64,000 nt of DNA, from assembly GCA_964016885.1 (NCBI GenBank), contig OZ024740.1, positions 285,820,001 through 285,884,000 of the forward strand, written 5' to 3'. The DNA is from Eledone cirrhosa (taxonomy: Eukaryota). The notes beneath the pieces are model-generated. The model made no database searches, was not told the DNA's origin, and saw only the letters and a list, made by a program, of their open reading frames with translations. The translations under genes and the position numbers were made by a program. This document shows positions 12,164 through 62,094 of the stretch, piece after piece. Numbering within the stretch: the stretch's first letter is position 1; every line of letters begins with the position of its first letter.

Positions 12164-12796
12164 AAATGCTGAGGGGATGAATTCATAGATGTAGGATGCT
12201 CAAACATAGAAAATAACTGCAAGTACAGTGAGTTGCTATAAAATAGCATATAAAAACAGGGTAATGACCCTTATAGATGGAAAAAAAGTTGCCAGCAGTT
12301 GCTATGAGGGATCAAACCTTGTCTCTCAGTTACTGAGTGCTCCCACCATTGAGCTAAAGTATCTCTGACCATCTAAATTAAGGAGATGAATCAAACAGCT
12401 TTTGATAATGTAGCCAAACATCATGTGTAAAGCTCAAACTGTTGAACTTACGAAATGCTGAGGGAATGAATTTATAGTAGCAACTGACTGTATTTGCAGT
12501 TATTTTCTACACAAGAGCATCCTATACCCATAAATTTCAGCATTTCATAAGTTTGGAAATTTAAGCTTCACACATTCTCAAAAGCCGTTTGATTCGGCTC
12601 CTTAAGATGTTGTCAGAGGCCCCTCAGCTCAATGGTGGGAGCACTCAGAGAGAAATGAAGTTCAATCCCTCGTAGTGACTGCTGTAAATTCTTTTTCCAT
12701 CTCTAAAGGTCCTTACCTTATTTTTATATGTATTTATAACAACTGACTGTACTTGCAGTTATTTTCTACACCTGAGCATCCTACACCTTCTATAAA
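12164..12796. mobile_element. Inverted pair of circularly permuted ~260-290 bp units with tRNA-like segment and decayed hammerhead-like motif
   Basis: Left copy 12164-12477 has a terminal direct repeat (AAATGCTGAGGG..ATGAATT.ATAG at 12164 and 12453). Right copy 12478-12796 is the opposite-strand homolog with its own direct repeat (CAACTGACTGTA.TTGCAGTTATTTTCTACAC at 12481 and 12740). Both contain AGCTCAATGGTGGGAGCACTCAG...GTT(C/T)(A/G)ATCCCTC. Confidence 0.7.
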
Positions 12797-15420
12797 TAAG
12801 TATATTATGAATTATATTATAGGCACAGGCTTGGCTGTGTGGCTAAGAAATAGTTTACTCTGGAATCACACGGTTCAATTCCACTGTGTGGAATCTAGTG
12901 CAAGTGTCTTCTACTATAGCCTTAGGTCAACAAATGCCTTATGAGCACATTTGGTACATGGAAACTTTAAGGAAGCCTGTCATACACGTATTCAATCACA
13001 CACTCACATGCACATTGAGATTGTTTATAAAAATGGCAATATTTTTTATGTTCCCCATAAACAATGTGTTCTGAAGCATAGTAATTTGACAAATATTAGA
13101 GGTATATATATACGATACTTAGAAAATAGAGTATGGATTGACATCAGGAAGATCATTTGGCTGTAGGAAATCTGCCTCAAAAAGTTTTATCTCAACCCAT
13201 GCAAGCATGGAAAAGGCAGGCATAAAAATGACGATGATGATATTTTGAATAATATTATTTTGTAATATAAATATAAACATAAATTATATACTGTGAACAA
13301 CATTATTTATAATGTAAATATATTTAATTTGAAAGAAAAAAAAAAGAAAGAAAAGTATTGAGTTAAATTTTTTAATGATAAAATATATTATTCTTATTTA
13401 AGATTTATTTTTGTTCCCAGAGCTTAGATTATATAACCAACCACTTCTTAGTTTAATCTATTATACCTCCATTGTTCTTGTGAATGTTAAAACCTAAAAG
13501 AGCATTGACCTAGCTGGCTAATTTAGATTGTTATATATAGCACTGGAATAAGATTTCTGACCACTTGAAAATAGAGCTAAGAACCACTTGACTGAGTTGT
13601 GGTTATAGATGGACAAATAATCTTGATATAATTGGGTAAATATATATAAACACACACACAGTTTCCATAGGATGGTTATCTTGTACACCACCTACTTTAA
13701 TCTTATACAGCAGGCAACTATAACTTTCAAAGTTATTATAAATGCTTGGCCTCACAATCACTGATGTTGATATTGTTGTTTAGTTCTAGGTTAGCTCTGA
13801 CTATGCAAACCTTTGCTCAAATGCATTCCAGATATGACCATCCCATTTTTTTTTGCTATGTGCAGGGAGGGAACCCAACATCATGTTATCCAATGTAGTT
13901 TTTTTCCAAACTGGTGGGGTGTGATTTGAGGGAGATTTGGCTGCTATTTCTAACAGGTCAAGCAACCATGTAGAAACCCTCTTGTTGGCTCATCCCAATC
14001 ATTAATGATCTCTCATAGCAATCTTGCATTCATAACAGCAAAAATTGGGTCCCATAGATTAGTTCTTTTCTTCGGGGTCTGAAAACACAAAGCTTAAGTA
14101 AGAGTCACAATGAAATACTACCTCTGTTACTACACACTTCAACATCAGAGGCTACACACAAAAGAAAGGCTATTGATTTGGACACTCACTCAACAATGCA
14201 CCACAACCTCTGAACCATAGATGCACTGACTCTTCACTCTTCTTTTTCTACTGATACTATACTGACCTTTACCACTACTACAAAGGCCAGTTTTATGTAG
14301 TTTTGTATCAAAAGGGTTAACCCATGCTTCAAAATAAACAGCTTTGTACCAGGGCATTTGATACCATTTGATACCAGCATTTGATACCAGGGGCAGTTTC
14401 AGGTGGTTTGATATCGAAAGGGTTCATAACCCTTTTGAGACAGAACCACCTGAAACTGTCCTTGATGACACAAAGCTGTTTATATTATCTAAAAACCTTC
14501 CTTCATAATTTTATGTAAGAACATGTTCCAAACACCAGTTTAATAATGAGATTCCTGATTATTTTCAACATTTTTGAAAAATGTTAAGCAATGTCTTTTG
14601 TTAGAAATATGGTAACCAATGCATTAAACCCCCTTTTTTTCTATGCCAGGTTGGCATCTACAATTTGCCTTCAATATTTTTTAGAGTTTCTTCTGTTTTA
14701 TGCCTTTAGTTTAACTCTTAACATTACATAAAAAATGTTCAGAACAATCTATCTACTAGTAATAATAATATTAACAAACCCGTTTTTACATATTTTCTAC
14801 TAAATCATTACTGGACGTTAAGAGTTGATAATCAGTACAATTATATTTTTACATGTATGCACTTTTTACCACTCAAACAGAAAAGTAAACAATGGTGGGA
14901 ACAGAGGCATAGCAAGGGAGTGAAAGGTAGGGGTGGGTAAAAAGTGTCACAAAGTTTCCTATATCTTATTATGCCTGTTAATTAAGATGGAGCATCAAAA
15001 GTGTCTCTACTCCCAAGCACTGAGAGCCCTTGCTTCATCAGAGGTGAACTTGTTTTCAGTCAAGTAAACTGAAGCAAGTAAAGTTGTATGACTTTCTCAG
15101 AGACTTCACAATACAAGCTAACAAAGAAACCTTCACATGATAGCTCGATTGGCTAGAATCAACAGCCAAATCTCCCTCATATAACATCTTATTGTCTGAT
15201 TTAATCAAGGATACACTGAATAGTCTTACATTATGTCTGAATAAAAAATTAGATTGTCATGACTGGAACAAGTTTGGTTGTATAGGTCAACTTGACCAGG
15301 GCAAACCTGTGGTTAAACAACAACATAACAGTAAGTATTTGAACATCTTCACATTTGGTCATTTGTCTAGCATTGTAACCTCACAATCACTGCTCCACTT
15401 GCAAATAATAATAATTATTA

Positions 15421-15615
15421 TTTCTACTTTTGGCACAAGGCCAGCAATTACTCCAGTGAATTACTGGTGCTTTATCTTATCGACGCCGTAAGGATGAGAG
15501 GCAAAGTTAACCTCTGCGAGATTTGAATTTGGGACGTAAAGGGCTATAACTCTGTGCTCCAAAGCATGGTAGAGCATCAGACGATGCTCTACCAATACTG
15601 CCATTCCACTGCCCA
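15421..15615 (-). mobile_element. tRNA-derived SINE (Meta-domain-like family)
   Basis: Reverse complement homolog of 44092-44283. Confidence 0.8.
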
Positions 15616-60729: not shown

Positions 60730-60769
60730 GAATCGAGATGGAGGGTTTGTGTTTCCTCCATCTCAATTC

Positions 60770-60809
60770 TACTTTTGAAAGGCACAAGAACTGCGAAACC
60801 GGTAAAGTA
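60770..60809 (+). ncRNA. Minimal type I hammerhead motif, U3-A8 variant (A9G in this arm)
   Basis: UACUU-UUGAAAG-GCA-CAAGAAC-UGC-GAAAC-CG-GUA/AAGUA: 5-bp stem I, 3-bp stem II, palindromic ACCGGU, followed within ~5 nt by AATAAA. Confidence 0.6.
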
Positions 60810-62094
60810 ACCAAATAAATATATTTAAAAAAAAAGACTCCGGTTGCATTTTCGATTTCATCTTTTTTTTCCTTATACCTTCACTCGTGTAAGACACCTC
60901 GTTTTTTTCATTTTGTAAAAAAAAACCTCATTTTCAATATATATATATATATATATATATATATATATATATATATATACACAAATATGAGGAGCAGGAG
61001 AAAGATGGATCTTTTTGATGATGAGCTGTTAGCTTAACAATTCAGTTGATAAAATAACATGTAAGTGGCTGAGTATTCCATGGATATGTACCCCTTATGT
61101 AATTCTCATGTTGAATCAGTGAGATGCAATATTGGAAGGCTAAAGCTTTGTGCGAGAGGTACAATCTATCTGCTGGGCTTTCACATAGTTTCTGTCTATG
61201 CTATTTTACTTTGGAACAAAAGCCAAGTTGATCTGAGGTTCCTAGTTCAATCCATGTTACAGAAATATCAAGGGATTTGATATATTTAACAGTATCTTAA
61301 ATATATCCCTATCTAAGTTGGAGTATAGAAAATGTCACTGAATTACTTTCTATTTATTTTATGTTTTGTCAATTGAAAGGTAAATATAACTCAAATACAA
61401 TTTGACTTCCAAAGAATTTGATTCTAGGTTTTGCTTCCAAGTTTATTTCCTTTGTAAATCTTCAACTGATTTAACTGTGGGAAATAGGTCATTGCATACA
61501 AGATTTCCCATAAGTAACTGGTCCTTTAAAGCATATATAAAATGATGATAATGATATGCCTGCTTTTTATGTTGGTATAGGTGAATGAGTTGGAGGGTCA
61601 TGTCGCCATTGTCATGCCTCCTTTTTGACATGGCCTCTATTGCTGGTGGTTCTTTGAAACACCAAACATTTACAGAGTGCACTGGATGTATTTTATCATG
61701 ACCAAAGCAACTGAGTTTATCTTGTATCTTGTTAGGCATCATGGCCCAGTGAGTGGGTGAATGAAGTGAGAGTATGATGGAAGAAACAGAATGATTGGGA
61801 TGAAAAGGTGAATGAAGAAGGATTACAGAAGGAAAGAGACCAAGAAACAAAGAGAGTATGTGAGAGGGAGTAATAGAAGAGAGACAGTAATTGCAGTAAG
61901 GAGTGGGTGTGTGATGGGGGAAGCAGTGTAGAGGGAGTAGTAATGGAATAAAGATAGTGGTGGTGGGAGTCATATTAGAGAGGTTGTAAGAGTAGCTACA
62001 TGTTAACTGGTGCGAGAGAGAGAGACAGAGACAGAGTGATGGGGGGTGACAAAGTGATGCATGTCTATAAGAAGTGGCCTTGAGGCCACTTGCA

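Follow-up and report, generated by a model that had tools for sequence, protein, structure and literature searches.

What kind of event leaves a short palindrome beside a microsatellite with a ribozyme written outward in both of its arms, and does that ribozyme do anything where it lies? The question is raised by a stretch of 64,000 nucleotides from Eledone cirrhosa (assembly GCA_964016885.1, contig OZ024740.1, positions 285,820,001 to 285,884,000 of the forward strand), hereafter the window, in which a preliminary description made from the letters alone had pointed out five inverted repeats with motifs of the minimal hammerhead ribozyme (HHR). We label these repeats, by their starting positions in the window, E1 (12164), E2 (19982), E3 (46415), E4 (46715) and E5 (60619). 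Our reading, to which we give a probability of roughly 78%, is that E2 to E5 are decayed insertion scars of at least three families of Penelope-like element (PLE), probably of Hydra-clade type, in which the hairpin was formed at integration.

Are the repeats real, and how are they built? In a blastn self-comparison of the window all five are present and are its five strongest local hairpins, spanning 12181-12797, 19982-20198, 46415-46607, 60635-60862 and 46715-46848, with ungapped arm identities of 94% (E2), 90% (E3), 94% (E4), 95% (E5) and 83% (E1). The hairpin coordinates first given for them hold; what these left out is a one-sided extension in E2 to E5, where one arm of each continues for 56-88 nt past the end of the other arm and then meets a microsatellite (the tail ends were placed by eye). 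The HHR reads from the centre to the outside in all four HHR-bearing hairpins, E2 to E5, and therefore the arms are joined head to head, each hairpin containing an inverted, 5'-truncated copy. At least one end of each of these four lies 0-3 nt from a run of (TA)5 or longer, as had been claimed for four of the five repeats; as background, positions within 15 nt of such a run make up 3.8% of the window, and E1 is at least 306 nt distant from the nearest one. The parts of E2 to E5, and a solo relative of E4, are the following.

19982-20088, minus strand: left arm of E2, tail-less, with an intact minimal HHR (core start 20051 to H17 at 20019), a C3-G8 pair and an 8-nt palindromic helix III; its outer end abuts (TA)24 at 19933-19980.
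20095-20198, plus strand: right arm of E2, with the HHR core from 20132 and the first pair of stem I broken.
20199-20262, plus strand: one-sided tail of E2, about 64 nt; it is homologous to its E3 counterpart and is predicted to form a short stem-loop.
46352-46414, minus strand: one-sided tail of E3, 63 nt, ending at (TA)n 46317-46350.
46415-46507, minus strand: left arm of E3, with an intact minimal HHR (core start 46480 to H17 at 46452), a U3-A8 pair and an 8-nt palindrome.
46515-46607, plus strand: right arm of E3, tail-less, with the HHR core from 46542 and damage that is mostly CpG-type transitions; it abuts (TA)11 at 46607-46628.
46631-46715, minus strand: one-sided tail of E4, about 85-88 nt, common to the solo copy at 40040.
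46716-46847, no strand assigned: hairpin of E4, with its fold centre at 46783 within the HHR core; its right end abuts (TA)n 46846-46903.
40040-40197, minus strand: E4b, in which the E4 arm and tail occur alone, without a hairpin; the copy breaks off inside HHR stem II and is flanked by (TA)n on either side.
60619-60744, minus strand: left arm of E5, tail-less, with the HHR core from 60724, U3-A8, and damage to helix III and stem I.
60753-60875, plus strand: right arm of E5, with the HHR at 60775-60804, U3-A8, a 6-nt palindrome, a 5-bp stem I and A9 changed to G.
60876-60936, plus strand: one-sided tail of E5, about 56-61 nt, ending at (TA)n 60938-60979.

The arms of E2 to E5 differ from each other by 4-9 substitutions per hairpin, 13 of the 25 being transitions in CpG context, and these strike A9, U4, helix III and stem I; the differences fit a neutral decay of arms that would once have been identical. 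Relative to E4, an AT-rich stretch in the tail of E4b (40085-40124) has expanded into a (TA)n run, and the element itself may give rise to some of the microsatellites here. Between TA-rich runs at 59919-59989 lies a 71-nt imperfect hairpin without an HHR core; it may be an insertion like E2 to E5 that underwent stronger truncation. The core is likewise absent from the smaller hairpins at 3858, 14388, 33103, 38855 and 59100.

Could the hammerhead motifs have arisen by chance? We searched with a descriptor of the minimal type I HHR (a 3-8 pair, stem II of at least 2 bp, GAAA, a perfect palindrome, UH, stem I of at least 4 bp, and A or G at position 9), taking as the null 200 block-wise dinucleotide shuffles of the window. 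With either base allowed at position 9 there are four matches, where the shuffles average 0.015 and never exceed 1, so the excess over shuffled controls that the preliminary description had named as a check was found; with strict A9 there are three (E2, E3 and a site at 49810), as against 0.01. The four matches are one arm each of E2 (left, 20051-20019, minus strand), E3 (left, 46480-46452, minus strand) and E5 (right, 60775-60804, plus strand), plus the AT-rich site at 49810, which lies outside the five hairpins. When the hairpins themselves were shuffled, a match appeared in 0, 0 and 1 of 2000 trials for E2, E3 and E5, respectively. The full order of HHR parts had been claimed for each arm of these three; that order is visible in both arms, and it is one arm of each that passes the full descriptor. 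Counted over all ten arms, the conserved core is strict in two (E2 left and E3 left), with a third carrying A9G. The partial or decayed HHR claimed for E4 is there, with core, stem II and GAAA kept, although the 5' strand of stem I, the palindrome and U16.1 are missing, the first of these because the fold centre at 46783 sits inside the core. The same claim for E1 fails, in that four descriptors gave 0 matches on either strand and E1 holds only a loose UUGANAA...GAAA. Rfam gave no hammerhead match at E<=1 in the window, and none on single arms. The HHRs of the window have a stem II of 2-3 bp, their two cores lie 0-81 nt apart, the arms carry just 6-41 nt upstream of the core, and the distance from GAAA to the tail-less end is 49 nt in E2, 49 nt in E3, 46 nt in E4 and 86 nt in E5; a minimal type I HHR near the 3' end is thus found in one arm each of E2, E3 and E5, in part in E4, and not in E1.

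Do the hairpins represent one family or several? Arm and tail of E2 are homologous to those of E3 and collinear with them (alignment score 100; maximum 38 in 200 shuffles), and yet E2 and E3 differ by a paired change in the core, C3-G8 versus U3-A8, and carry two different perfect 8-nt palindromes; their inner ends share a short pyrimidine-rich motif. E4 is matched by the solo E4b, tail included (score 141, null maximum 58). Neither E4 nor E5 has significant similarity to E2/E3 or to the other, and therefore at least three families are present. An alignment of eight arms misplaced E5, and the pair counts do not draw on that alignment; a possible further tail copy to the left of E2 was not significant. 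The E2 tail contains a small predicted stem-loop at 20204-20222 (plus strand), with its counterpart in the E3 tail at 46390-46408 (minus strand).

Beyond the window we examined the E3 family, aligning sequence records of four runs to the E3 left arm plus tail (46352-46514). Of these, run X1 consists of contigs, maybe from the window's own sample, and run X21 of restriction site-associated DNA (RAD) reads with the same species label from another study; 952 of 17.1 million records in X1 and 488 of 12.5 million in X21 aligned to the E3 query, while runs X4 and X6, from other organisms (word share 0.32 and 0.29), gave 0 records on the E3 arm. Loose ends, with positions taken from 12 of 168 rows, pile up at two places. 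At 46414/46415 (38 + 28 contigs) the loose letters resemble TA or GA microsatellites at once, and at 46363 (44 contigs, 256 reads) a short diverged stretch is followed by TA repeats; the first pile is the tail-less end and the second the tailed end. In other words, E3 is one copy of a repeated family that ends at either of two 3' sites, each of them adjoining microsatellites, so that a TA-rich target is seen not only at E2 to E5 and E4b in the window but also at loose ends of E3-family copies elsewhere; it is lacking at E1.

The strand-changing, or fold-back, contigs number 11, at 11 different coordinate pairs, and by our reading of the table at least six of the 11 joints are head to head: in these, one side falls at 46492-46507 and has 32 or more aligned letters, and the side lengths fit no other orientation. 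The partner side falls between 46403 and 46466 in those six, and the fold point of the partner arm ranges from 46385 to 46466 over all 11; in two joints the length of the short side is exactly the distance to 46414. With 11 different joints in a multicopy family, the hairpin was likely made at insertion and not copied from a palindromic master. Depth drops about 20-fold from the 3' part of the query to the core, as 5' truncation predicts, but divergence lowers depth too. At 46466 the loose-end consensus (43 contigs, agreement 0.55), with majority variants at 46446-46447, suggests a stem I of 6-7 bp in the family, versus 4-5 bp in the window copy. No variants occur at 13 core positions (40 of 75 rows), which is not evidence of selection because the core is without CpG and the alignment favours conserved copies. 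In the tail, majority variants among the genomic contigs restore the pairing of the stem-loop in the E3 family, with a different loop.

How would such a structure come about? Published work provides most of the steps. PLE insertions are often 5'-truncated with an inverted 5'-truncated copy, a 30-40 bp tail on one end and a preference for microsatellites (PMC8557442; PMC3846280); with a purified PLE protein, both strands of the target are nicked and then extended, AT-rich DNA is preferred, reverse transcription begins at two adjacent RNA sites that delimit the tail, and the element's hammerhead cleaved only with the protein present and was dispensable for insertion (all as described in PMC11167929). 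On this basis, the PLE endonuclease would nick both strands of a (TA)n target, and each target 3' end would prime reverse transcription on the PLE RNA, one at the nearer and the other at the farther of the two start sites; with two start sites, one arm would have a tail and the other would not. Both cDNAs would end after 60-190 nt, in or just past the HHR, and would then be joined at their far ends in the middle of the insertion. The palindrome would accordingly be a by-product of integration, and the ribozyme would belong to the parent RNA, where it would act as a dimer through the palindromic helix III; the copy within the genomic hairpin is decaying and, by prediction, held in a duplex. The Penelope-like origin put forward earlier is supported by four features taken together: the HHR architecture, the head-to-head arms, the tail on one end only of E2 to E5 (matched by the two 3' ends in E3-family contigs) and the (TA)n targets. 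The stem-loop of the E2 tail, like its E3 counterpart, is situated between the two putative reverse transcription start sites.

Several findings weigh against this reading. The tails, at 56-88 nt, exceed the published 30-40 nt, and the tail-less arm of E5 ends 86 nt past GAAA. No reverse transcriptase (RT) or GIY-YIG domain is linked to any arm within the window, and the arms are too short to reach an open reading frame (ORF); Pfam, run on 157 of the 333 listed ORFs, returned only an RTE-type RT at the curated cut-off, and a Pfam I-TevI zinc-finger match at 52674-52868 (E 0.001, below cut-off) had no GIY-YIG context in six frames. Nine short motifs from the window, compared with published PLE consensi, found no matching HHR or tail and hence no named parent family, the one match being a chance one to coding sequence of a Naiad element; scanning metagenomes for the pattern of the E2/E3 end gave 0 loci. 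Among the genomic copies, a fold-back joint occurs in just 11 of 952 contigs, each in one contig; several joint positions (46445, 46466) coincide with divergence of the window copy; and five of the 11 joints (one arm at 46503-46507) together with the five longest pieces end at 46501-46507, near E3's own fold and unlike random truncation, while E2 folds at a place nearly homologous to the E3 fold. Additionally, two-sided priming is not the only way to the junction: self-priming fold-back, proposed for PLE junctions in PMC3846280, is an equally open route, especially for E4.

The clustering of inner ends leads us to a more tentative suggestion. The arms may be run-off cDNAs, comparable to strong-stop products and not randomly truncated, if reverse transcription ran from the tail sites nearest the RNA 5' end to a fixed 5' end about 25-45 nt upstream of the HHR; we consider this possible but doubtful. 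If it were true, each integration attempt would drop a perfect hairpin of 130-260 nt into a TA microsatellite, and, at four per 64 kb, PLEs would be a steady and so far unattributed source of self-folding ADAR substrates here.

Among the alternatives, the one that survives best, though we think it improbable, is that of dedicated non-autonomous palindromic elements, a strong form of what the preliminary description had proposed, in which PLE enzymes would mobilize the complete transcript of a hairpin master copy. Such a master would explain why four hairpins occur within 64 kb, why the fold centres of E2, E3 and E5 lie close upstream of the core (25-41 nt), why one arm ends at 46503-46507 in five of the 11 joints, and why E2 and E3 have a pyrimidine-rich motif in common at their inner ends. 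It does not explain the span of partner-arm fold points over the 11 joints or the occurrence of E4 both as a hairpin and as a solo arm, and the HHR would be buried in a hairpin RNA whose predicted folding energy is -155 to -192 kcal/mol. With fold points that differ in 11 of 11 joints and a solo arm of E4, a dedicated palindrome is not needed; a short one-armed non-autonomous template, on the other hand, is compatible with insertion-made hairpins, which cover it.

Is the hairpin then a switch? The idea, considerably less probable than a palindromic master, is that the antisense arm turns the ribozyme off and that ADAR editing or partial transcription turns it on. In its favour, E2, E3 and E5 each retain one near-intact HHR, and long hairpins are ADAR substrates, with lizard Penelope repeats heavily edited (PMC5625713). 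Yet, with the HHR oriented from the centre to the outside, transcription of either strand yields the antisense arm before the ribozyme, and in a read-through transcript of either strand the HHR bases are predicted to pair with that arm at a mean probability of 0.89-0.98; the on/off fold suggested earlier as a possibility becomes, in these predictions, a state that is simply off. Isolated monomer HHR folds are predicted to be unstable, at +0.3 to +3.1 kcal/mol, while self-duplexes of the palindrome between molecules are predicted at -6.4 to -13.3 kcal/mol, a combination of weak monomer and palindrome pairing that is expected of dimer-type ribozymes (review PMC6765202). Minimal HHRs, moreover, require a dimer and cleave poorly or only with protein, according to PMC4209133 and PMC11167929, and the arm differences, with their CpG-context transitions and their changes in A9, U4, helix III and stem I, look neutral. 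ADAR editing itself is plausible for any long hairpin if transcribed. Applying the near-perfect double-stranded RNA (dsRNA) test as published in PMC5625713 to 5995 sampled 50-mers of the window, we obtained 59 that qualify, 8 of them in these hairpins, 29 in one inverted pair at 58-59.7 kb and 17 in microsatellites; with 8 of 59, the ADAR angle is modest. The inverted pair (58009-58193 and 59550-59734) is formed by a common short repeat that occurs there twice, on opposite strands, as copies of 185 nt with 96% complementarity and 1.36 kb between them; it is the window's largest source of near-perfect dsRNA.

A slightly poorer prospect still is that the hairpins are fragments of non-LTR retrozymes, i.e. 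of tandem HHR units of 170-400 nt copied through circular RNA. Retrozymes have been proposed to derive from pseudo-LTRs (pLTRs) (bioRxiv 10.64898/2026.07.22.740005), and in one E3-family contig the alignment returns from 46466 to 46414, as expected of a partial tandem. E2 to E5, however, have no tandem repeat, end 37-76 nt or more past the cleavage site, and start upstream of that site and not at it, so that the term retrozyme-like fails for them. A further point for retrozymes is E1, itself a partial tandem of a non-coding unit:

12164-12797, no strand assigned: E1, in which a non-coding unit of about 289 nt forms two partial tandems in inverted orientation, without an HHR match and away from (TA)n.

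Its left part, 12164-12477, is one unit plus 25 nt, its right part, 12478-12797, about 75 nt plus most of a unit, and its left end is about 17 nt longer than its right. The lack of an HHR match in E1 tells against a retrozyme here as well. We regard E1 as older than E2 to E5 and of another nature: it is likely its non-coding 289-nt unit that was inserted with similar geometry. Its partial-tandem arrangement resembles PLE insertions, and its assignment to them is much weaker than that of E2 to E5. Both E1 arms (12305-12357, minus strand; 12610-12690, plus strand) and the tails of E2 and E3 (20210-20240, minus strand; 46370-46410, plus strand) contain a short stretch that we take to be tRNA-like, with Rfam support below threshold or absent; for 12305-12357 the Rfam score is a weak 15.4 bits against a cut-off of 29, and ARAGORN found no tRNA. 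In the E2 and E3 tails this stretch runs opposite to the hammerhead strand and might serve as a promoter of Pol III type directed toward the inside of the hairpin. E3-family depth peaks at the tail stretch, which other repeats may share. The alignment of E1 with the E2 and E3 tails is marginal (8 and 19 of 300 shuffles were as good), and we claim no relationship.

Finally, that the repeats are miniature inverted-repeat transposable elements (MITEs) of a TA-targeting DNA transposon with hammerhead-like motifs by chance is the least probable proposal and already largely refuted: hairpin shape and TA-rich flanks are typical of MITEs, but the motif excess over shuffles, the core covariation and two different palindromes in the homologous E2 and E3, the asymmetric ends with a one-sided tail, the variable fold points and the solo truncated arm E4b all speak against it, and we found neither symmetric terminal inverted repeats nor a uniform copy length.

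The surroundings are AT-rich animal DNA (GC 23-46% per 2 kb) with many microsatellites and short repeats, the repeats being reminiscent of octopus genomes. An open 433-aa fragment of an RTE-type non-LTR RT lies at 17546-18847 (plus strand), with a PHD finger inserted after the RT core (Pfam RVT_1 and PHD, 17546-18844); it has many marine relatives at about 50% identity, and the sources named among the 120 matches listed are a hydrozoan, lancelets and one metagenome bin, with no cephalopod. At 14283-14464, 49609-49776 and 50295-50510 are decayed elements of about 200 nt whose ends start with TTAA and then CCC or similar; they resemble MITEs of the piggyBac type.

Why do these scars matter? In the literature we found no report on these particular families, and the insertion pattern itself is already in print; E2 to E5 are a clean example of the published PLE footprint of inverted pLTR plus tail, in families unmatched to a named consensus. 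Hairpins of this sort can readily be mistaken for MITEs or for precursors of microRNAs (Rfam gives sub-threshold microRNA matches on E3 and E5). Little is known so far about the points at which PLE reverse transcription begins and terminates in vivo, and the ends of these hairpins preserve them; if the inner ends mark the RNA 5' end, one could test directly how inverted pLTRs arise.

How, then, do E2 to E5 compare with known systems? Like the non-LTR retrozymes of animals (PMC7229834; bioRxiv 10.64898/2026.07.22.740005), the elements described here are non-coding and PLE-related with a type I HHR, and the E1 unit of about 289 nt is in their size range; unlike them, E2 to E5 have no tandem HHR units and E1 has no HHR. 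In Poseidon the HHR overlaps the start of the ORF, whereas no ORF opens after the HHRs of the window. Insertions of endonuclease-positive (EN+) PLEs with inverted pLTRs (Arkhipova 2013, PMC3846280; Frangieh 2024, PMC11167929) share with ours the head-to-head terminal repeats, junction palindromes, tail at one end, AT-rich targets and (putatively in ours) two RT start sites, and differ in that our arms are so short that the hairpin is the whole insertion. The minimal HHRs of metazoan PLEs (Cervera and De la Pena 2014, PMC4209133) have, as here, a short stem I, an unpaired base after A9, a palindromic helix III and a U3-A8 variant, and that paper describes opposite-strand HHR pairs 100-700 bp apart and most copies as solo and truncated, again as here. 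The Schistosoma HHRs described there have a stem II of 7-8 bp, compared with the 2-3 bp found here, where, in addition, the arms are adjacent. The closest likeness is to the Hydra clade as given in the supplement of Craig et al. 2021 (PMC8557442). Differences remain: no coding sequence is present here, the motif search gave no sequence identity to published consensi, the U3-A8 cores of E3 and E5 are absent from the Hydra-clade HHRs listed there, and the layout of E5 and the length of the tails depart from the clade. On the other side, Hydra-clade PLEs (Hydra-1_Obim of Octopus bimaculoides; Penelope-13_HM) have (TA)n targets, as do E2 to E5, and Penelope-13_HM has an inverted 5'-truncated copy with an HHR on both strands, like the hairpins of the window. 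By eye, their HHR near the 3' end runs CUGANGA, an unpaired base, a short stem II, an unpaired base, GAA, an AC...GU palindrome and H, as in E2, E3 and partly E4. By our own count the Hydra-1_Obim consensus ends 49 nt after the start of GAAA, exactly as do the tail-less arms of E2 and E3, with E4 at 46. The agreement is thus in three things, HHR layout, distance to the end and target, and E2 to E5 are probably of Hydra-clade type.

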